Shown here one piece after another: positions 11,418 through 60,451 of a stretch of DNA of 64,000 nucleotides. How positions within the stretch are numbered: the first letter of the stretch is position 1; each line of letters opens with the position of its first letter. The notes under the pieces are model-generated. The model was not told the DNA's origin. It did not search any database and worked only from the letters and a program-made list of their open reading frames with translations. Source of the DNA: Escherichia coli (GTDB lineage: Bacteria > Pseudomonadota > Gammaproteobacteria > Enterobacterales > Enterobacteriaceae); NCBI RefSeq assembly GCF_024700885.2, contig NZ_CP117016.1; one strand, 5' to 3'. Position numbers and translations under genes: made by a program.

Positions 11418-12132
11418 GTGATGGTGGTGGGGGAAGGATTACTCAGCGCTGCGCGCTTCACCCTTCGGGTCGTTGCCTGCGGCAACGCTTTCTCGCTGGC
11501 GCTCGAGTCGCACCTTGGTCGAAGCTTCTCATCCTTCCCCGCATGGGCAGAATATTTAATTGCGGATTCGTTTGAGAGTTCACGGACTTTTGAAAAGTGA
11601 TGGTGGTGGGGGAAGGATTACTCAGCGCTGCGCGCTTCGCCCTTCGGGTCGTTGCCTGCGGCAACGCTCTCTCGCTGGCGCTCGAGTCGAACCTTGGTCG
11701 AAGCTTCTCATCCTTCCCCGCATGGGCAGAATATTTAATCGCGGATTCGTTTGAGAGTTCACGGACTTTTGAAAGTGATGGTGGTGGGGGAAGGATTACT
11801 CAGCGCTGCGCGCTTCGCCCTTCGGGTCGTTGCCTGCGGCCACGCTCTCTCGTTGGCGCTCGAGTCGAACCTTGGTCGAAGCTTCTCATCCTTCCCCCGC
11901 TTGGGCAGAATATTTAATTACGGATTCGTTTGAGAGTTCAGGGACTTTTGAAAGTGATGGTGGTGGGGGAAGGATTACTCAGCGCTGCGCGCTTCGCCCT
12001 TCGGGTCGTTGCCTGCGGCCACGCTCTCTCGCTGGCGCTCGAGTCGAACCTTGGTCGAAGCTTCTCATCCTTCCCCGCATGGGCAGAATATTTAATCGCG
12101 GATTCGTTTGAGAGTTCACGGACTTTTGAAAG
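11418..12132 (-). repeat. rtT: rtT tandem repeats downstream of tyrV (four ~178-179-bp units, each ending in the tRNA-Tyr 3' segment)
   Basis: Unit starts at 11418, 11597, 11775, 11954 (next unit is tyrV at 12133), plus a degenerate partial unit at ~11340-11417; an Arg-rich small ORF ([24 protein letters not shown], ~11458-11532, -) resembles the recalled protamine-like Tpr. Confidence 0.8.
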
Positions 12133-12135
12133 TGA

Positions 12136-12220
<85 letters not shown>

Positions 12221-12254
12221 AGGGGTAATTCAAATTTTGAGGTAATGCTTGAGA

Positions 12255-12339
<85 letters not shown>

Positions 12340-42389: not shown

Positions 42390-43253
42390 GATGGCAGCCT
42401 CCGCGATGAATTTGATTAACTCACCACCGAGGTTTTCCACGACCATAAGGGTGGTGAGACGTACAGGGGTGGAAATACCGGTCATCACGGAACCCGGCCA
42501 GCCTTGCGGCTGCCCTGCACGCCCCACCATAATGCGAATGTGGCTGTGCTTAACGCATAAAAAAACCGCCTGAGCGCGGTTATGCGCCGTGAATGATTTC
42601 GGGTTTCCACGCCCGGCACCCGTTTTATGAGGTGCAGGTGCACTATAATTCCACCCGTTCTGGTTTTCAATAGCTACATTCAACATTTTCTCTACCTTTC
42701 ATCACCGAAGTGAACTTTGTTGATGCGGTGCCTGGTGCCTCCAGGTGATGTTAACCAGTTAACAATTAACGCCGGATACAGAGAATCCACCCATAACACT
42801 GTTTTTGGTTTTAACTGTTCCGCGTGCGCTGAGCCGCATTCACCGCATCACAAAATTCACTTTAAAAAGGGCGGCAGAGCAGTCACGGAGTAAAACTGAT
42901 ACCGCCAAAAGTCACCAGAAAATTGATAACAGAGGGCGTTGCAGCGGAGTTGTCACTTAAGCGTATGGTCAACCTGACAACCCGGTGTCCTCAACGGGGG
43001 AAGGAATAACCCCGCCATACTTACCGCCGCGCCATTTCGCGGAGTGCCACAACCGGAAGCGCACGGTCGAACTAAATTTAACGACACCGTACAGAGAGAC
43101 CAATTTCGCCGTGCGCTTTCGCGTTATGCCCTGACTTTTCAGGGACATATCCTTTCAGTAAACTGTCAGTGCCGGATGTTCACCCGTGTCCGGCGCACGC
43201 ACTCCACCTGACCCGTGGAGAACTCCTTAATTACCAACCCTCAGGAGGGTGAA

Positions 43254-50528: not shown

Positions 50529-50739
50529 TTTCATATTGGCGAGGTGACGGGAGTTAAGTAGAATGGCTGCGGGTGCTTGAGGCTATCTGTCTCAGGCATG
50601 AACACCAAAGGCAGATAGAGAAAAGCCCCAGTTAACATTACGCGTCCTGCAAGACGCTTAACATTAATCTGAGGCCATATCTATGCTCTACACACGTAGG
50701 TTAGCCTCTTACGTGCCGAAAGGCAAGGAGAAGCAGGCT

Positions 50740-50895
50740 ATGAAGCAGCAAAAGGCGATGCTAATCGCCCTGATCGTCATCTGTTTAACCGTCATGGTGA
50801 CGGCACTGGTAACGAGGAAAGACCTCTGCGAGGTACGAATCCGAACCGGCCAGACGGAGGTCGCTGTCTTCACAGCTTACGAACCTGAGGAGTAA
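50740..50895 (+). CDS. hok: Hok/Gef-family type I toxin
   Basis: MKQQKAMLIALIVICLTVMVTALVTRKDLCEVRIRTGQTEVAVFTAYEPEE (51 aa) with AAGGAG Shine-Dalgarno; the in-frame upstream extension from 50683 may be a mok-like leader frame. Confidence 0.85.
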   Translation: MKQQKAMLIALIVICLTVMVTALVTRKDLCEVRIRTGQTEVAVFTAYEPEE

Positions 50896-52401: not shown

Positions 52402-52782
52402 ATGACCGAGCGCATAGAATTTGTTTTACCTTACCCGCCGACGGTGAACACTTACTGGCGACGCCGTGGCAGCACATATTTTATCTCGGAGGAGGGAAAG
52501 CGTTATCGCCGGGCTGTGGCGCTTATTGTTCGCCAGCAGCGGCTGAAATTAAGCCTGTCCGGAAGGCTGGCGATAAAGGTGATTGCAGAGCCACCGGATA
52601 AGCGTCGTCGCGACCTGGACAATATCCTGAAAGCACCGCTGGATGCGCTGACGCATGCGGGAGTGTTAATGGACGATGAGCAGTTTGATGAAATCAATAT
52701 CGTTCGTGGTCAGCCAGTATCTGGTGGACGTCTGGGGGTGAAGATTTACCCCATAATGCATGAAGAGCAGGTCAAAAAATGA
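52402..52782 (+). CDS. rusA: Holliday junction resolvase RusA
   Basis: 126-aa ORF with the RusA-like pattern (LPYPPTVNTYWRRRG...RRRDLDN...). Confidence 0.8.
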   Translation: MTERIEFVLPYPPTVNTYWRRRGSTYFISEEGKRYRRAVALIVRQQRLKLSLSGRLAIKVIAEPPDKRRRDLDNILKAPLDALTHAGVLMDDEQFDEINIVRGQPVSGGRLGVKIYPIMHEEQVKK

Positions 52783-53600
52783 AACTGGAAGATTTACCGA
52801 AATACTACTCCCCAAAATCCCCTGGCCTGACCGATGCATCGGCCTCAACGTCAAAAGATGCGCTGAGTATCACTGATGTGATGGCCGCGCAGGGCATGAC
52901 ACAGAATCGGGCTGAGATGGGGTTTTCTGCGTTCCTGGGGAAAATGGGCATCAGTATGAATGACAGGGCGCGGGCAACAGAATTACTGGCAGATTATGCA
53001 CTCAGTCGGTGCGATCGTGTGGCGGCGTTGAGAAAACTTCCGGCAGAAATAAAACCGGTAGTGATGCGCATTATGGCTTCGTACGCTTTTGAGGATTATG
53101 CCCGCAGCGCAGCGAGTAAAAAGCAGTGCCCCTGTTGCCGAGGGGAAAAATTTATTGAAGGCGAAGTTTTTACAAACAAGGTTCAGTATCCGGATGGCAA
53201 GCCGCCAGTATGGGCAAAGTGTACGAAAGGTGTGTATCCGTCTTACTGGGAAGAATGGAAAAAAATTCGGGAGGTGGTGAAAGTTTCTTGTCCTGAATGT
53301 AAAGGGAAGGGGGAGATTTCCACTGCCTGTAAAGACTGCCGTGGGCGTGGTGTTGCCATTCATCGTGAAGAGTCGGTAAAACGTGGTATGCCTGTTATCA
53401 GAGACTGCCAGCGTTGTGGTGGTCGTGGCTGTGAAAGACTACCATCAACGGAGGCATTTAATGCCATACGCAAAGTGACGAGTGCTATCACGCTTGATAC
53501 GTGGAAAAAATCAGTGAAACGCTTTTACGATACGTTGGTGGTTCGGTTTGACATTGAAGAGGCATGGGCGGAGCGGCAGTTAAAGAGGGTAACGCGATAG
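52779..53600 (+). CDS. putative late-gene antiterminator Q (large, multi-CxxC type)
   Basis: 273-aa ORF with several CxxC pairs, immediately upstream of a PR'/tR'-like promoter-terminator pair. Confidence 0.55.
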   Translation: MKLEDLPKYYSPKSPGLTDASASTSKDALSITDVMAAQGMTQNRAEMGFSAFLGKMGISMNDRARATELLADYALSRCDRVAALRKLPAEIKPVVMRIMASYAFEDYARSAASKKQCPCCRGEKFIEGEVFTNKVQYPDGKPPVWAKCTKGVYPSYWEEWKKIREVVKVSCPECKGKGEISTACKDCRGRGVAIHREESVKRGMPVIRDCQRCGGRGCERLPSTEAFNAIRKVTSAITLDTWKKSVKRFYDTLVVRFDIEEAWAERQLKRVTR

Positions 53601-53605
53601 TGTTG

Positions 53606-53634
53606 TTGATTTTTCCCGAATCTGTGGTAAATTT
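53606..53634 (+). promoter_or_regulatory. putative late promoter PR'
   Basis: TTGATT (53606-53611), 16-bp spacer, TAAATT; located between Q and the tR'-like terminator. Confidence 0.45.
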
Positions 53635-53681
53635 GCTCTAACGATGGGCGTTTTATGCCTGACGTTAGAAGATTTTTTACA

Positions 53682-53705
53682 CCCCGCCGCCTGGCGGGTT
53701 TTTTA
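53682..53705 (+). terminator. tR'-like terminator downstream of PR'
   Basis: Stem ccccgcc/ggcggg followed by TTTTTTAT. Confidence 0.7.
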
Positions 53706-54174: not shown

Positions 54175-55224
54175 ATGCTTAATACTGTAAAAATATCCAG
54201 TTGTGAGTTAATCAACGCCGACTGCCTGGAATTTATCCGGTCGTTACCCGAAAATTCTGTTGACCTGATAGTCACGGACCCGCCGTACTTTAAAGTGAAG
54301 CCTGAGGGCTGGGATAACCAGTGGAAGGGCGACGATGATTACCTGAAGTGGCTGGACCAGTGTCTGGCGCAGTTCTGGCGGGTGCTGAAACCTGCCGGAA
54401 GTCTTTACCTGTTCTGTGGTCATCGCCTGGCATCTGATATCGAAATCATGATGCGTGAACGCTTCAGTGTGCTGAACCATATTATCTGGGCGAAGCCGTC
54501 CGGACGCTGGAACGGATGCAACAAGGAAAGCCTGCGGGCGTATTTCCCCGCCACAGAGCGCATTCTGTTCGCGGAACATTATCAGGGGCCGTATCGTCCG
54601 AAAGATGCCGGGTATGCGGCGAAGGGCAGTGCACTGAAACAGCATGTGATGGCCCCGCTGATTTCTTACTTTCGTGATGCGCGCGCGGCCCTGGGGATAA
54701 CGGCAAAACAGATTGCAGATGCCACAGGAAAGAAAAACATGGTGTCGCACTGGTTCAGTGCCAGTCAGTGGCAGCTACCGAATGAAAGCGATTATCTGAA
54801 ATTACAGGCGCTGTTTGCCCGGGTGGCAGAAGAGAAGCATCGGCGTGGTGAACTGGAAAAGCTCCACCACCAGCTGGTGGATACGTATACCTCACTGAAC
54901 CGGCAGTATGCGGAGCTGCTGAGTGAATATAAACATCTGCGGCGGTATTTTGGCGTGACGGTGCAGGTGCCGTATACCGATGTGTGGACGCATAAACCGG
55001 TGCAGTTCTATCCCGGGAAACATCTGTGCGAAAAACCGGCAGAAATGCTGCAGCAGATAATCAGCGCAAGCAGTCGTCCGGGTGACCTGGTTGCAGATTT
55101 TTTCATGGGGTCGGGTTCAACGGTAAAAGCGGCGATGGCACTGGGGCGTCGTGCGATTGGCGTTGAACTGGAGACCGGACGTTTTGAGCAGACAGTCAGG
55201 GAAGTTCAGGATTTAATCGTTTGA
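54175..55224 (+). CDS. orphan DNA N6-adenine/N4-cytosine methyltransferase (DPPY motif)
   Basis: 349-aa ORF with catalytic IVTDPPYF near the N-terminus and AdoMet-binding FFMGSGST near the C-terminus; no adjacent restriction endonuclease ORF. Confidence 0.8.
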   Translation: MLNTVKISSCELINADCLEFIRSLPENSVDLIVTDPPYFKVKPEGWDNQWKGDDDYLKWLDQCLAQFWRVLKPAGSLYLFCGHRLASDIEIMMRERFSVLNHIIWAKPSGRWNGCNKESLRAYFPATERILFAEHYQGPYRPKDAGYAAKGSALKQHVMAPLISYFRDARAALGITAKQIADATGKKNMVSHWFSASQWQLPNESDYLKLQALFARVAEEKHRRGELEKLHHQLVDTYTSLNRQYAELLSEYKHLRRYFGVTVQVPYTDVWTHKPVQFYPGKHLCEKPAEMLQQIISASSRPGDLVADFFMGSGSTVKAAMALGRRAIGVELETGRFEQTVREVQDLIV

Positions 55225-55273
55225 AACGGATGAGATTGCAGAATTAATTACGCACCATTATTATTCTGCTTCC

Positions 55274-55349
55274 GGCCCTTTAGCTCAGTGGTGAGAGCGA
55301 GCGACTCATAATCGCCAGGTCGCTGGTTCAAATCCAGCAAGGGCCACCA
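55274..55349 (+). tRNA. tRNA-Ile (anticodon CAU, ileZ-like) or tRNA-Met
   Basis: 76 nt; perfect 7-bp acceptor stem (GGCCCTT/AAGGGCC), D and T arms, anticodon loop CTCATAA, 3' CCA. Confidence 0.85.
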
Positions 55350-55449
55350 TCACAAACCGCCATTAGCTTATCAGGAAGAGCAGACGACACGATAACAGGG
55401 TTGTTGGTGCGGGGGCGGGTCCCCGATGGCGGTCCATTATCGGTATTCA

Positions 55450-55526
55450 GCGTTGTTAGCTCAGCCGGACAGAGCAATTGCCTTCTAAGCAATCGGTCAC
55501 TGGTTCGAATCCAGTACAGCGCGCCA
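55450..55526 (+). tRNA. tRNA-Arg (anticodon UCU, argN/argO-like)
   Basis: 77 nt; acceptor stem GCGTTGT/ACAGCGC, anticodon loop CTTCTAA, T loop TTCGAAT, 3' CCA. Confidence 0.85.
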
Positions 55527-55633
55527 TATTCATTCTTCCAGATTCCTTTCGGCAGAGCCTTATACTGAAATATACCTGGCTCAGGATATTGTTGAAAATA
55601 TTATATGTTTGTCAAAAATAAAAGTTCTGTTAA

Positions 55634-55990
55634 GTGTTGATTGAGTGTTTGTTATACGGTCTAATGGTTTTTTCAGCATTAAATATTTATCATTCATATG
55701 GTGTGGGTAGAGTGAATATTGATGAGGCGTCGGGGTGTTTCATCCTTAGGCAGCGTATTGATATAGTCAATGCAGAACGAGCAAAGGCCTTCAGCCGTTT
55801 GACAGTTTTGTTCTGTACTCCTGATCGTCTTTCGGGAAGAGACGTTATTATTCTGAATAGTGATGCTATACAGAGGGTTTGCGATGAGTTCATGGTGGCT
55901 AATTCAGAATTATTTGCTCTTGTTCAGGAGTACAACAGAATAGCCAGGACCTGTGGTATGGATGAACTTCGGATTACTCATCTGGGGTAG
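55634..55990 (+). CDS. hypothetical cargo protein in the AT-rich slot downstream of the phage tRNAs
   Basis: 118-aa ORF (GTG start; internal ATG alternatives); no recognisable motif. Confidence 0.4.
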   Translation: MLIECLLYGLMVFSALNIYHSYGVGRVNIDEASGCFILRQRIDIVNAERAKAFSRLTVLFCTPDRLSGRDVIILNSDAIQRVCDEFMVANSELFALVQEYNRIARTCGMDELRITHLG

Positions 55991-56437
55991 ATACATATCT
56001 GGATTATCACCGGTTACGGTAAAAAGTGATTGCTTACTGTTTTTGTGAATGGCATTGCAGCAGCCGGATAATGTCAGTGCTGGCTGACGGTGTGCTGGTG
56101 GCGGGTGTGGTGGTTGCTGCTTTCCCGTTGCTGAAAAAGAAAACGCCAGACTGTTAGCCGGGTATCAGTTAGCGGGAGAAATTTTTAAATACTTCACAAT
56201 TCAGGCGGTTGACTGTTGTCTGGTTTGCGGGGAGTTTGTTAAAAGAAACTGGCATGGTGAATCCCCCTGTGCGGAGGGGCAATCAGCGAGTAGGTATATG
56301 GGATAATCGCGGATTCAGGTGCTGGTACTGAATTCACCGGGAGGCACCCGGCACCATGCAATGGCACATAGCGCCACTCTCCAGCCCCTCTCCGGAGGGG
56401 CTGTTTATATTGATTTTGTCAGATGTGAGTAAACTCC

Positions 56438-56773
56438 TTATGGACTTTGTTGTTTTAGCCCATAAGGACATATTTGCAGAGTGCAACGGTTATTAAAGCA
56501 TTCATTCAATACGTTATCTGTATTTGTAGGGCATTCCTGGCTGTTTTTGATTAAATTCCAGAATGTTTTATTGAATGGTACTACGTTGTAAATGGTTACA
56601 GGCAGCACTTTGTTATTGAGCATGATGCCTGTGTGAGTCAGTGTAAATATACTTTCAGGAGGTAAGAAAGCATCCGATTGATACCAGATTATTAATTTTA
56701 TTTTACTCCATATGACTGAAAAAGATATTCCGCATGATGGCTGGATAACTGTATCAATCACAATCCACTTCAT
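56438..56773 (-). CDS. hypothetical cargo protein (Cys-containing C-terminus)
   Basis: 111-aa ORF on the minus strand with AGGAAA Shine-Dalgarno; AT-rich context. Confidence 0.4.
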
Positions 56774-57033
56774 TTAGTTTCCTTGTTTATGCCTTGCTGG
56801 TGATGTTCTGAAAAGTATAAATGATATTTTTGATTGTAAACCATAGAGCAGAATTATTTTTCTGATGTTGTTTATTGTTTATTTAAATGCAGGGTGGTTT
56901 ATATCTCGTCTTGTAGTTTATCCATGCATATCTGCTTGATGATGAGGTTTTTAATTAAGGTATGGTTTTGTGTTTTTTCTGTATTACATGTCAGGTATTT
57001 TAAAGAATCATTTTTCAGATGGTGGAAAGAACC

Positions 57034-58890
57034 ATGGCATTTAAACACTATGATGTTGTCAGGGCGGCGTCGCCGTCAGATCTTGCGGAAAAGCTGACAC
57101 ATAAAATGAAAGAGGGCTGGCAGCCGTTTGGTAGTCCGGTGGCCATAACCCCTTATACCCTGATGCAGGCGATTGCAGCAGAAGGTGATGTGGTCGTCAG
57201 TGGTGCAACTGAGCCGGAGTGGTACTACGTCATCGTACTGGCCGGGCAATCCAATGCCATGGCTTACGGTGAAGGGCTTCCGCTTCCGGATTCTTACGAT
57301 GCGCCCCACCCACGCATTAAGCAACTGGCCCGTCGCAACACAGTGACTCCCGGTGGTAAAGCATGCGCATTTAACGACATCATTCCGGCAGACCACTGCC
57401 TGCATGATGTTCAGGATATGAGCGCACTGAATCATCCGAAGGCAGACCTGAGCAAAGGGCAGTACGGCTGTGTCGGCCAGGGCTTACATATTGCCAAAAA
57501 ACTGCTTCCGTATATCCCGAATAACGCGGGGATCCTGCTGGTACCATGCTGTCGTGGTGGTTCGGCATTCACCCAGGGCGCGGAGGGGACATTCAGTGCG
57601 GACACGGGGGCCAGCCAGGATTCGGCACGCTGGGGTGTGGGTAAACCGTTATATCAGGACCTGATCGCACGCACCAAAGCGGCATTACAGAAGAACCCGA
57701 AAAATGTGTTGCTGGCGGTGTGCTGGATGCAGGGCGAATTTGACATGAGCGCTGCCACCTACGCACAGCAACCGGACCTGTTCACGGCCATGCTGAAGCA
57801 GTTCCGTACTGACCTTTCCGGATTTAACGCGCAGTGCCATGGCGGCAGTGCTGCAGTTGTACCGTGGATTTGTGGCGACACGACGTATTACTGGAAAAAC
57901 ACATACGGCACACAGTATGACTCCGTCTACGGCGCGTACAAAAACAGGGAGAGCGACAACGTTTTCTTTGTGCCGTTCATGACCGACGGTAACGGCAACA
58001 ACACGCCCACCAACTTACCGGCAGAAGACCCGGATATTGCTGATGCAGGTTATTACGGCGCGCAATCCCGTAGTAATGGTAATTGGGTATCGTCAAATCG
58101 TCCGACACATTTCAGTTCATGGGCGCGCAGGGGCATTATTTCGGATCGCCTGGCAACCGCTATTCTGAACGCAGTTGGTCGAACCAGCGCCTTCATCAGC
58201 GGTACCGCACCGGAGATTAAACCCTCGCCCGGCGGCGACACGCCATCGGGGCCGTCTGATGGTGACACATCCGTTCGTACAGTCTCCCTGCTGCCGACAG
58301 CCGGAGAGGCTGCTGCGCAGGGCTGGACCATCACCGGCGGCAGTGTTGCGCTGGAAGATGGTGTGTTTAAGGTTACCAAGCAGAGCAATAAAACCTGGTC
58401 CCTGATGCATCCGGTGGATGACGCGGTCTCCCTGCTGACACGGGGTGGCAGACTGAGCTGTAAGTTTCGACTGTCAGGCGCACTGACCAACAACCAGTTC
58501 GGTCTGGGAATTTATCTGTATACCGATGTAGCGTTACCTGACGTCGTGGCGATGACCGGGACTGGTAACCCGTTCCTGATGTCGTTCTTCACCCAGACCA
58601 CAGACGGCAAACTGAATCTGATGCATCACAAGAAAGCCGGAAACACAAAGTTGGGCGAGTTCGGGAATTACAGTAACGACTGGCAGACGCTGGAGCTGGT
58701 GTTCACCGCCGGCAGTGCCACGGTTACTCCGAAACTGAATGGAGTGGCTGGCCCGGCATTCCAGGTCATAAAAGACAGTCTGACACTGGGGCTGAATGCG
58801 CTGACGCTGACGGATATTACCAAAAATGCAGCGTATGGCGTTGAGATAGAAAGTCTGGTGCTGGAGATAAATGCACCGGCATCATCATAA
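57034..58890 (+). CDS. NanS-p-like esterase (N-terminal DUF1737-like + SGNH/sialate O-acetylesterase-like domain)
   Basis: ORF 57019..58890; ATG at 57034 with GGTGGA Shine-Dalgarno; N-terminus MAFKHYDVVRAASPSDLAEKLTHKMKEGWQPFGSPVA; same position as the large esterase downstream of stx in Stx phages. Confidence 0.6.
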   Translation: MAFKHYDVVRAASPSDLAEKLTHKMKEGWQPFGSPVAITPYTLMQAIAAEGDVVVSGATEPEWYYVIVLAGQSNAMAYGEGLPLPDSYDAPHPRIKQLARRNTVTPGGKACAFNDIIPADHCLHDVQDMSALNHPKADLSKGQYGCVGQGLHIAKKLLPYIPNNAGILLVPCCRGGSAFTQGAEGTFSADTGASQDSARWGVGKPLYQDLIARTKAALQKNPKNVLLAVCWMQGEFDMSAATYAQQPDLFTAMLKQFRTDLSGFNAQCHGGSAAVVPWICGDTTYYWKNTYGTQYDSVYGAYKNRESDNVFFVPFMTDGNGNNTPTNLPAEDPDIADAGYYGAQSRSNGNWVSSNRPTHFSSWARRGIISDRLATAILNAVGRTSAFISGTAPEIKPSPGGDTPSGPSDGDTSVRTVSLLPTAGEAAAQGWTITGGSVALEDGVFKVTKQSNKTWSLMHPVDDAVSLLTRGGRLSCKFRLSGALTNNQFGLGIYLYTDVALPDVVAMTGTGNPFLMSFFTQTTDGKLNLMHHKKAGNTKLGEFGNYSNDWQTLELVFTAGSATVTPKLNGVAGPAFQVIKDSLTLGLNALTLTDITKNAAYGVEIESLVLEINAPASS

Positions 58891-59256: not shown

Positions 59257-59302
59257 TTCAATGACTCAAAACTATGAACTGATTGTGGGTAATGACTCCA
59301 AC

Positions 59303-59806
59303 TTATTGATAGTGTTTTATGTTCAGATAATGCCCGATGACTTTGTCATGCAGCTCCACCGATTTTGAGAACGACAGCGACTTCCGTCCCAGCCGTGCCA
59401 GGTGCTGCCTCAGATTCAGGTTATGCCGCTCAATTCGCTGCGTATATCGCTTGCTGATTACGTGCAGCTTTCCCTTCAGGCGGGATTCATACAGCGGCCA
59501 GCCATCCGTCATCCATATCACCACGTCAAAGGGTGACAGCAGGCTCATAAGACGCCCCAGCGTCGCCATAGTGCGTTCACCGAATACGTGCGCAACAACC
59601 GTCTTCCGGAGCCTGTCATACGCGTAAAACAGCCAGCGCTGGCGCGATTTAGCCCCGACGTATCCCCACTGTTCGTCCATTTCCGCGCAGACGATGACGT
59701 CACTGCCCGGCTGTATGCGCGAGGTTACCGACTGCGGCCTGAGTTTTTTAAATGGCGGAAAATCGTGTTGAGGCCAACGCCCATAATGCGGGCGGTTGCC
59801 CGGCAT
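59303..59806 (-). CDS. insB: IS1 transposase InsB
   Basis: 167-aa [53 protein letters not shown]... Confidence 0.95.
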
Positions 59807-60000
59807 CCAACGCCATTCATGGCCATATCAATGATTTTCTGGTGCGTACCGGGTTGAGAAGCGGTGTAAGTGAACTGCAGTTGCCATGTTTTACGGCAGT
59901 GAGAGCAGAGATAGCGCTGATGTCCGGCGGTGCTTTTGCCGTTACGCACCACCCCGTCAGTAGCTGAACAGGAGGGACAGCTGATAGAAACAGAAGCCAC
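59725..60000 (-). CDS. insA: IS1 protein InsA
   Basis: 91-aa [46 protein letters not shown]... Confidence 0.95.
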
Positions 60001-60451
60001 TGGAGCACCTCAAAAACACCATCATACACTAAATCAGTAAGTTGGCAGCATCACCCTGATTGTGAAAGGGATCCGCAATTTTGAGAATAAAGTTACGGTA
60101 ACTTTAGCGTTACGGGACAAAAAACGCTTTGACGGTGAAATTTTTGACCTGGACATCTCGCTGGACCGTGTTGAAGGTGCCACGCTGGAGTTTTATGAGG
60201 CAGCAGCCAGAAGGAGCATCAGACAGGTCTTCCTGGATGTTGCTGCCGGGTTATGTGAAGGGGATGAGCAGTCGCCGGAAAAGCGCCCCGTAATTTTAGA
60301 GGCGCAGAATGTATGGATAACCTACAAAGGAAAGCTACCGGGAATAATTACTGGTTCTCTGAAGACTCCTCCGGAATCACAACCTTAAGTCACTGACCGG
60401 AACAGATAAACCTGTCCGTGGGCAGAAACCGATAAATCCTGATAAATATCC

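Follow-up and report, generated by a model that had tools for sequence, protein, structure and literature searches.

An Escherichia coli prophage slot at the stx position is very probably an iraL locus that also holds an STnc100 sRNA gene and a conserved small ORF

In Stx-converting phages, the late region runs from Q through a methylase gene and the ileZ-argN-argO tRNAs to a cargo segment, STnc100, a nanS-p esterase gene and the lysis genes (PMC12370729). In Stx2 phages the cargo is stx2AB, and STnc100 follows just after stx2B, 75 nt from stx2 (PMC12370729). EDL933 has 11 STnc100 copies, most of them transcribed without induction and one confirmed by Northern blotting (PMC5331693). A related sRNA, PasD, sits upstream of esterase genes (bioRxiv 10.64898/2026.05.13.724894). 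Another closely related system is iraL, a stress-response regulator gene of uropathogenic E. coli strain CFT073. Binding of CFT073 IraL to RssB, and stabilisation of RpoS, have been reported experimentally, and the region upstream of iraL is at least 96% conserved among iraL strains (PMC4045071). IraL is elevated in a CFT073 fur mutant (PMC7157518) and iraL mRNA increases by 1.6 log2 upon transfer to 37 °C (PMC12890032).

We analysed a 64,000-nt stretch of E. coli DNA (contig NZ_CP117016.1), hereafter the window. An earlier note, made from the sequence alone, had described a slot at 55527-57033 in the order Q, methylase, tRNA-Ile, tRNA-Arg, slot, esterase, lysis genes. The ORF list, ARAGORN, RefSeq and phrog matches all agree with this order. 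The locus has the gene order of Stx-converting phages: in the late operon, its slot is flanked by the ileZ-argN-argO tRNAs on one side and by STnc100/nanS-p on the other, as in phage phi296 and in the annotation of the identical O104:H4 locus. Unlike those phages, and as the earlier note had observed, it has no stxA- or stxB-like ORF between 55527 and 57033 in the ORF list. The plus-strand cargo instead consists of small uncharacterised proteins. The features are as follows.

52779-53600: Q gene, upstream of the slot
53634-53698: terminator-like hairpins between the Q and methyltransferase genes
54175-55224: DNA methyltransferase gene
55274-55349, plus: tRNA-Ile2(CAT), ileZ type (ARAGORN; Rfam tRNA, 72.5 bits; RefSeq tRNA-Ile in the identical O104:H4 locus)
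55360-55436, plus: degenerate argN-like tRNA-Arg pseudogene (aligned with the intact copies L001, L005 and L014)
55450-55526, plus: tRNA-Arg (TCT), the immediate left edge of the slot (ARAGORN; Rfam, 68 bits)
55712-55990, plus: ORF92, probably 92 aa from GTG 55712, a small acidic protein of ~10 kDa (phrog_2873)
56026-56157, plus: 43-aa DUF3927 or 'TciB-like' ORF with a replaced 5' end (Pfam PF13064, phrog_1470, RefSeq WP_001438304.1)
56223-56412, plus: STnc100-family prophage sRNA gene, a 190-nt match (Rfam RF02076)
56438-56773, minus: iraL, 111 aa, predicted RssB anti-adaptor of the IraM/IraL/RssC family (NCBIfam NF007393; identity to CFT073 IraL)
56774-56806, minus: predicted iraL 5' UTR, with the transcription start at 56806
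to 56840, minus: predicted iraL core promoter (TTTACA, 56840-56835; TATACT, 56819-56814, or TACTTT, 56817-56812)
56841-57033, no strand: very AT-rich intergenic DNA (GC 0.294) separating the esterase start from the iraL promoter; upstream regulatory region of iraL
57034-58890, plus: SASA-family (NanS-p-like) carbohydrate esterase gene, the right boundary of the slot (phrog_143; RefSeq 'SASA family carbohydrate esterase')
59288-60055: IS1, within the lysis cassette

The tRNA cluster begins on the left with tRNA-Ile2(CAT). Its middle member went undetected by both ARAGORN and Rfam. Compared with the three intact copies, it retains the acceptor and T arms, but the middle is replaced and the anticodon arm is scrambled. 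On the right, the esterase gene is intact and is followed by holin and lysozyme genes. The IS1 copy in the lysis cassette points to a possibly defective prophage, in which case late expression would be moot. The slot had been called markedly AT-rich. This holds overall (GC 0.398, against 0.513 upstream and 0.542 downstream) but not for the centre, where GC is normal (0.52 in the DUF3927 ORF and 0.55 in STnc100). Low GC is limited to two arms: 55527-55711 (0.31) and iraL with its promoter region (0.35 and 0.29).

Within the slot, the earlier note had placed three ORFs and two hairpins. All are present at the coordinates given, but the statement that none matches a family fails for three of the four features to which they reduce. 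The matches are to IraM (162 bits), DUF3927 (E 1.4e-26) and RF02076. Likewise, 'unannotated' applies to the 118-aa ORF only, since RefSeq annotates the other two. In total, IraM, DUF3927 and a hypothetical pseudogene are the only names that RefSeq and family searches give within the slot. Our main reading, to which we give a probability of roughly 85%, is that the slot belongs to a lambdoid prophage and is the same iraL locus as on the 'potB island' of CFT073. It would be a late-region cargo position holding four unrelated pieces.

The evidence for iraL is the most direct. The 111-aa minus-strand ORF matches the IraM model NF007393 above its cutoff of 121 bits, over residues 1-110/111, and also matches the IraM structure 8twd (E 9e-32). 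CFT073 IraL and the O104:H4 copy have exactly this amino acid sequence; K-12 IraM shares only 62% amino acid identity. PMC4045071 tells iraL from iraM by a nucleotide identity of ≥95% with the CFT073 gene across the full coding region. Here, identity to the single CFT073 copy is 99.4% over 336 nt. On sequence grounds, the gene is iraL and not iraM. The slot as a whole is colinear with CFT073 over 55235-57253 at 97% identity, and the two loci share the tRNA cluster, ORF92, DUF3927 and STnc100 as neighbours. They differ in that the CFT073 esterase gene has an internal deletion of ~1.5 kb (lacking window positions 57254-58747), and in that the middle tRNA is degenerate in the window.

The promoter appears to be conserved too. 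The 30-nt mRNA end obtained by 5'-RACE in CFT073 is found exactly at 56806-56777 on the minus strand, with 0 matches in 100 shuffles. The 245 nt upstream of iraL (56774-57018) are 96.7% identical to CFT073. Judged from these matches, the sigma-70 promoter and transcription start mapped in CFT073 are conserved in the window. The promoter hexamers were read by eye. A consensus promoter scan did not list them; it returned 6 sites, against 5.5 expected in shuffles, and we gave it no weight. Transcribed from a sigma-70 promoter of its own, opposed to phage late transcription, iraL would be expressed in the lysogen. Given this orientation and the separate promoter, iraL should be independent of Q-mediated late transcription, unlike stx2, and so does not qualify as late-transcribed cargo. 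IraL would then stop RpoS reaching ClpXP, so raising RpoS in exponential phase. By analogy with the identical CFT073 protein, we infer RssB binding and RpoS stabilisation in the present strain. A gene active in the lysogen that raises RpoS would be a lysogenic-conversion gene. Hence, the presence of iraL in an stx-type late-region slot, with only its own promoter before the esterase gene, would make it a prophage lysogenic-conversion gene, not a generic 'island' gene. More speculatively, Q-dependent late transcripts might cross iraL in the antisense direction, such that induction turns off RpoS stabilisation.

These observations bear on the proposal that the slot holds undescribed late-expressed cargo with a toxin, anti-defence or exclusion role, its two larger ORFs possibly forming a pair. 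The position is a known hotspot with contents that differ between related phages, and ORF92 is a real, conserved gene with no recognisable family function. However, the 111-aa ORF is iraL, which has a different known role and its own lysogenic promoter (PMC4045071). Neither are the two ORFs partners, given that the ORF92 half and the iraL half of the slot occur apart, in mEp460 and vB_EcoS phages. ORF92, the DUF3927 ORF and IraL have no match in PADLOC-DB v2 at E ≤ 0.1. ORF92 also lacks a signal peptide-like or hydrophobic segment and a toxin-like fold. We consider the proposal unlikely, and the slot no longer offers the best candidates for undescribed cargo. IraL is characterised, the hairpins are parts of a catalogued sRNA and the peptide falls within a Pfam family. 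The contents are thus largely already known: iraL, STnc100 and a shortened DUF3927 gene. This corrects the record, in that the flagged slot is no source of new toxins but the home of iraL, which raises RpoS in uropathogenic E. coli.

ORF92 is the sole uncharacterised item of the slot. It forms the conserved core of the 118-aa ORF (55634-55990), which proved to be a real, conserved gene with an over-extended 5' end. The gene most likely encodes 92 aa from GTG 55712. We rejected the 118-aa model on three counts. In-frame conservation does not extend to its first 26 codons, with out-of-frame indels upstream of GTG 55712. Residues 1-27 have pLDDT <50 (AF2) and are predicted to be disordered. The N-terminal stretch is missing from all distant homologs, and homologs of 91-95 aa start at the position of GTG 55712. 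In several clades an SD-like element precedes this start (AGGAG in the sister clade); in the present clade the start is GTG and the SD is weak (GGGT).

The 92-aa form matches the phrog_2873 profile (E 1.7e-70) and is predicted with confidence to be a two-helix hairpin (AF2 mean pLDDT 89). Profile searches of the two larger ORFs divide: the 111-aa ORF belongs to a well-characterised family, whereas ORF92 has no Pfam, PDB or PADLOC match and no specific fold match. That it could be an artefact of an AT-rich spacer is contradicted by its conservation under purifying selection. Between clades, dN/dS is 0.27 in frame, against 1.18 and 0.82 in the shifted frames, and differences are concentrated at third codon positions. 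This does not prove a current function in the present clade.

A search of 1.84 billion representatives yielded 20 relatives. One clade (P0035) adjoins a fimbrial operon and not a phage late region, so linkage of ORF92 to the late slot is not universal. One relative (P0032, E 1e-6) lies in a Mu-like baseplate region and is too distant to inform function. Weak PDB matches of the ORF92 family profile to a number of GapR/UPF0335 entries (best E 0.034, residues 1-48) raise the idea that ORF92 is a small nucleoid-associated protein that binds DNA and is akin to GapR (UPF0335/DUF2312). Neither sequence nor fold showed significant similarity to the solved GapR structures, and this relationship is very improbable.

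Among 5,426 complete E. coli genomes, 1,311 carry ORF92, 1,184 of them at ≥95% identity. No annotated feature coincides with any of the close-clade copies listed, and NCBI PGAP makes no call. A gene carried by roughly one in four complete E. coli genomes, and unannotated at the listed copies of its present form, merits a gene call.

The 43-aa DUF3927 ORF includes the 28-aa hydrophobic peptide (56071-56157) that had been listed as a possible product in its own right; the peptide is its C-terminal part. The PF13064 match spans model positions 7-53 of 53, while phrog_1470 matches residues 12-40 only (E 1.5e-11). The closest full counterpart is tciA-tciB of phage JLK-2012 (phrog_632 and phrog_1470), which encodes a TerB-like protein and a small DUF3927 membrane protein, in the same slot between the tRNAs and STnc100/esterase. 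The names 'TciA' and 'TciB' are annotation labels. A literature search for them returned only papers on Trypanosoma genotypes, and DUF3927 appeared in one unrelated paper. The C-terminal 32 residues are nearly identical to JLK-2012 TciB (92.6% nucleotide identity, 56058-56368), but homology to JLK-2012 tciB begins only at 56058. Upstream of this, VIAYCFCEWHC replaces the first hydrophobic helix, and hydropathy has one peak, against two in full-length TciB (JLK-2012, L016). No tciA remnant was found in the slot by tblastn. The ORF thus departs from the two-helix TciB architecture coupled translationally to an upstream TerB-like tciA, as the JLK-2012 locus has it. It is probably a 5'-replaced remnant left after loss of tciA and the start of tciB, so that the present copy of the three-gene set has decayed.

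That set is the order ORF92, TerB-like gene, DUF3927 gene, seen in the late-region slot of E. coli and Citrobacter prophages. ORF92 is conserved, is predicted to fold as a coiled-coil hairpin and in relatives heads this set, just upstream of the lysis genes. It would be read on the Q-dependent late transcript and act with TciA and TciB as envelope-associated small proteins. In the present strain, ORF92, the DUF3927 ORF and STnc100 are presumed to be transcribed. We think it rather doubtful, if somewhat less so than the undescribed cargo above, that the three genes form an unstudied module, with ORF92 as founding member, that has a real phenotype and occupies the late-region slot in lambdoid prophages of E. 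coli and Citrobacter. Such a phenotype might concern the control of lysis timing, stress at the envelope, tolerance of colicin or tellurite, or exclusion of superinfecting phage. Gene calls missed by annotation pipelines in ~1,180 complete E. coli genomes, those of CFT073 and the O104:H4 outbreak strain among them, would then explain why ORF92 has been overlooked.

Decay may have gone further. With its GTG start, weak SD, lack of an NCBI call and usual partners deleted or truncated, ORF92 could be a silent passenger in the present lineage. More broadly, everything in the slot except iraL and STnc100 could be decaying debris, ORF92 and the DUF3927 ORF being non-functional leftovers of ORF92-tciA-tciB kept by linkage. 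Loss of tciA and of the first hydrophobic helix of tciB are consistent with this. So are the degraded SD of ORF92 relative to the sister clade, the degenerate argN tRNA nearby, the IS1 insertion and the deleted CFT073 esterase. Conversely, the ORF92 frame is intact in large protein clusters (253, 175, 146 and 370 members), in CFT073 and in the 1,184 genomes with close copies. Frameshifted variants are rare (clusters of 1-5 members), and between-clade purifying selection is clear. We regard the debris explanation as the most credible of the alternatives, though still tentative, and favour a genuine mosaic moron site carrying iraL.

The remaining piece is STnc100. The two hairpins, previously taken as separate, both fall within one match to RF02076 that covers the full-length model (positions 1-206) and far exceeds the gathering threshold (132.4 bits against GA 47). 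Hairpin 1 (about 56262-56285; ~56263-56279) is the STnc100 5' hairpin. Hairpin 2 (56382-56403 plus a T-run) is the terminator-like hairpin identified by a terminator scan. Folding gives an MFE of -74.6 kcal/mol (z -2.26), and the sequence is 100% identical in CFT073. Consensus scanning found no STnc100 promoter, such sites being no commoner than in shuffles. The copy is predicted to be a structured sRNA that closes with an intrinsic terminator. As at the STnc100/PasD loci of lambdoid prophages, it has a terminal hairpin with T-run and lies upstream of a sialate-esterase gene; here, unlike there, iraL intervenes between sRNA and esterase. The convergent iraL stop codon is 26 nt from the end of the match.

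That a variable late-region cargo slot occupies the stx position is borne out by related prophages, in which contents vary at the same place. The phi296 slot holds STnc100 alone, JLK-2012 has tciA-tciB, and two further slots (L006 and L009) hold an AraC-type regulator with an ORF92 homolog. Specialists are unlikely to be surprised by the iraL context, the missed ORF92 or the STnc100 points. L016-type slots lack STnc100, so the sRNA is not tied to ORF92. Since STnc100 is common to otherwise differing slot contents, it is probably a homology patch for cargo exchange, a recombination anchor suggested by breakpoints in a handful of loci. As an apparent exchange segment, it could help to account for the transfer of stx and other cargo from one prophage to another. 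With the slot as query, partial phage matches start or stop near STnc100: mEp460 covers 1-834, vB_EcoS phages 668-1507 and Stx phages 652-882. STnc100 is found in all esterase- or DUF1737-type comparison loci, with two copies each in L003 and L006.

The 1.5-kb slot at 55527-57033 occupies the late-region cargo position of a lambdoid prophage, between a phage tRNA cluster and a NanS-p-like esterase gene. An earlier note had equated this position with that where Stx phages carry stx. We agree that it is a true cargo site, and the ORFs, hairpins and flanking genes described all lie where reported. The arrangement is as follows.

52779-53600: Q antiterminator
between Q and the DNA methyltransferase: terminator-like hairpins
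54175-55224: DNA methyltransferase
between the DNA methyltransferase and the slot: tRNA(CAT), then tRNA-Arg(TCT)
55712-55990 (+): ORF92, the 92-aa core of a 118-aa ORF called at 55634-55990
56026-56157: 43-aa DUF3927 ORF, the tciB remnant
56223-56412 (+): STnc100 sRNA; the first hairpin of the earlier note is its 5' hairpin
56382-56403, followed by a T-run: the second hairpin, the intrinsic terminator of STnc100
56438-56773 (-): iraL, 111 aa
57034-58890: SASA-family esterase, to the right of the slot, then holin and lysozyme

The earlier note recognised no known family in the slot, and proposed undescribed cargo. The observation was real but its interpretation is largely overturned. The main occupant is a published gene, iraL; the 28-aa peptide lies in a DUF3927 ORF and the hairpins are a catalogued sRNA. 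What remains new is a short conserved gene of unassigned function, missed by annotation pipelines, beside a decayed partner gene. The slot was also described as AT-rich. This holds overall (GC 0.398 vs 0.513 upstream) but not for the central part, which is normal (0.52-0.55). The AT-richness lies in two arms: 55527-55711 (GC 0.31), and iraL with its upstream region (GC 0.29-0.35). Many complete E. coli genomes, O104:H4 outbreak strains among them, carry the slot sequence at 100% identity, and at least 80% of it is present in 862 of the 5,426 complete genomes.

The 111-aa ORF is iraL, encoding an RssB anti-adaptor. Its score against the NCBIfam model NF007393, 'anti-adapter protein IraM', is 162 bits (curated cutoff 121); it also matches the solved IraM chain 8twd (E 9e-32) and is 62% identical to K-12 IraM. 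In CFT073, iraL was defined by Hryckowian et al. as a homologue of IraM with 58.9% identity (PMC4045071). The one iraL copy in CFT073 shares 99.4% nucleotide identity with that of the window, and the window, CFT073 and O104:H4 genes all encode the same protein. The published 5'-RACE end of the iraL mRNA (PMC4045071) has one exact match in the window, at 56806-56777 (-), and the 245 nt upstream of iraL are 96.7% identical to CFT073. Hence, the second AT-rich arm is iraL plus its promoter and regulatory region. Later work found more IraL when fur is mutated in CFT073 (PMC7157518), and a rise of 1.6 log2 in iraL mRNA upon a shift to 37 °C (PMC12890032). In the lysogen, the gene's own sigma-70 promoter would drive synthesis of IraL, which would bind RssB and so protect RpoS from ClpXP, as shown elsewhere for the identical protein. 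Q-dependent late transcription would cross iraL antisense. ORF92, the tciB remnant and STnc100 would lie sense to the late transcript.

STnc100 is a known family of prophage sRNAs. The Rfam match (RF02076) is full length, and its 132.4 bits exceed the gathering score of 47; a stable fold is predicted (-74.6 kcal/mol, z -2.26). Both GC-rich hairpins, previously assigned to no family, belong to this one sRNA gene. Of the 11 STnc100 copies in EDL933, most are transcribed in the absence of induction, and Northern blotting confirmed one (PMC5331693). Stx2 phages carry a copy 75 nt downstream of stx2 (PMC12370729). The sRNA is also related to PasD, located upstream of sialate-esterase genes (2026 preprint, bioRxiv 10.64898/2026.05.13.724894). 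Like other copies, this one is probably expressed on its own too. STnc100 and iraL are convergent (56404-56437), with 26 nt from the end of the STnc100 match to the iraL stop codon. No T-run follows the shared hairpin in the minus-strand direction, and transcripts of iraL may therefore run antisense into STnc100. A RefSeq 'incomplete hypothetical protein' pseudogene in O104:H4 and CFT073, equivalent to 56242-56367 (-), lies antisense within STnc100 and is probably an annotation artefact.

Searches of Pfam, NCBIfam, PADLOC and PDB gave no match for the 118-aa ORF. It belongs to phrog_2873, a family of unassigned function. "Unannotated" applies to this ORF alone; none of the 27 close-clade genomes listed has a feature under the match. 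Comparison of the core with a 57%-identical homologue gives dN/dS 0.27, with differences mostly at third codon positions (42 vs 25 and 22), and shifted frames give 1.18 and 0.82. We conclude from these substitution patterns that the ORF is a real coding gene. The 118-aa model was set aside for 92 aa because frame-breaking indels separate clades in the first 26 codons. Those residues are predicted to be disordered (pLDDT below 50) and are missing from all distant homologues (91-95 aa long). In a sister clade, NCBI annotates a 92-aa hypothetical protein (MNIDD...) whose start aligns with GTG 55712; the start codon is likewise GTG in L016, the single sister-clade locus read. Several clades have a Shine-Dalgarno-like element at this start. 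This is a very small family, with 21 clusters in a set of 5.8 billion proteins and 20 hits in one of 1.84 billion representatives. Of the 5,426 complete E. coli genomes, 1,311 carry ORF92 DNA.

The ORF92-like gene is followed by tciA (TerB-like) and tciB (DUF3927), directly upstream of holins and at the same late-region position, both in Citrobacter (L011-L013) and in a common type of E. coli prophage (L016-L018). This recurrent company suggests a shared role. A literature search on ORF92, TciA and TciB found no experiment. The possible 28-aa hydrophobic peptide of the earlier note is part of the 43-aa ORF that RefSeq annotates as a DUF3927 protein (PF13064, E 1.4e-26; 'TciB-like' in PHROGs). 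Against the full-length TciB proteins of phage JLK-2012 and of an E. coli prophage (L016), homology begins only at 56058 ('SSRIMSVL...'), and unrelated residues replace the first hydrophobic helix of the family. The upstream tciA is missing from the slot, with no remnant found. Hence, this DUF3927 copy is 5'-truncated. Other relatives differ in their neighbours. In the L006 and L009 type, the ORF92 homologue lies downstream of an AraC-type regulator gene (phrog_1450, HTH_18; L009 164-889, L006 1933-2658), with an IS3-family element between the two in L006. One clade adjoins a fimbrial operon, outside any phage late region.

The slot is mosaic. Colinearity with the CFT073 iraL locus extends from 55235 to 57253 of the window, at 97% identity. 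CFT073 lacks the equivalent of 57254-58747, a ~1.5-kb internal esterase deletion that leaves a DUF1737 pseudogene and a small ORF; the esterase is intact in the window. Of the two halves of the slot, phage mEp460 matches just the left (query 1-834) and vB_EcoS phages just the right (query 668-1507). JLK-2012 has tRNAs, tciA-tciB, STnc100 and esterase; phi296 has tRNAs, STnc100 and NanS, with no other content. Common to all partial matches is STnc100 plus ~45 nt upstream. Hence, in this handful of loci, the sRNA gene may serve as a homology patch for swapping cargo modules. STnc100 was not found in the esterase-less L016 type. Two loci have cargo flanked by paired STnc100 copies (L003, 3561-3754 and 4030-4218; L006, 1344-1556 and 4650-4839), which suggests cassette-like units, each ended by sRNA and terminator.

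In the ileZ-argN-argO-type cluster, the middle tRNA (55360-55436) is degenerate. Relative to intact copies in O104:H4, CFT073 and phi296, the acceptor and T arms are intact and the anticodon arm is scrambled; neither ARAGORN nor Rfam called a tRNA here. Four tandem RtT RNA repeats at 11422-12339 (-), beside two tRNA-Tyr genes, are the chromosomal tyrT-tyrV region. The first sRNA genes of the prophage, at ~42.4 kb, are ~30 kb away. Besides STnc100, the prophage carries sRNA genes at 42447-42920 (-) and 50571-50745 (+), namely C4 antisense RNA, isrK, DicF and sok, the last an antitoxin adjoining hokD. An IS1 element at 59288-60055, with inverted-repeat matches at both ends and InsA/InsB ORFs on the minus strand, lies inside a YdfR-family gene between holin and lysozyme. 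The lysis cassette of the prophage is therefore interrupted.
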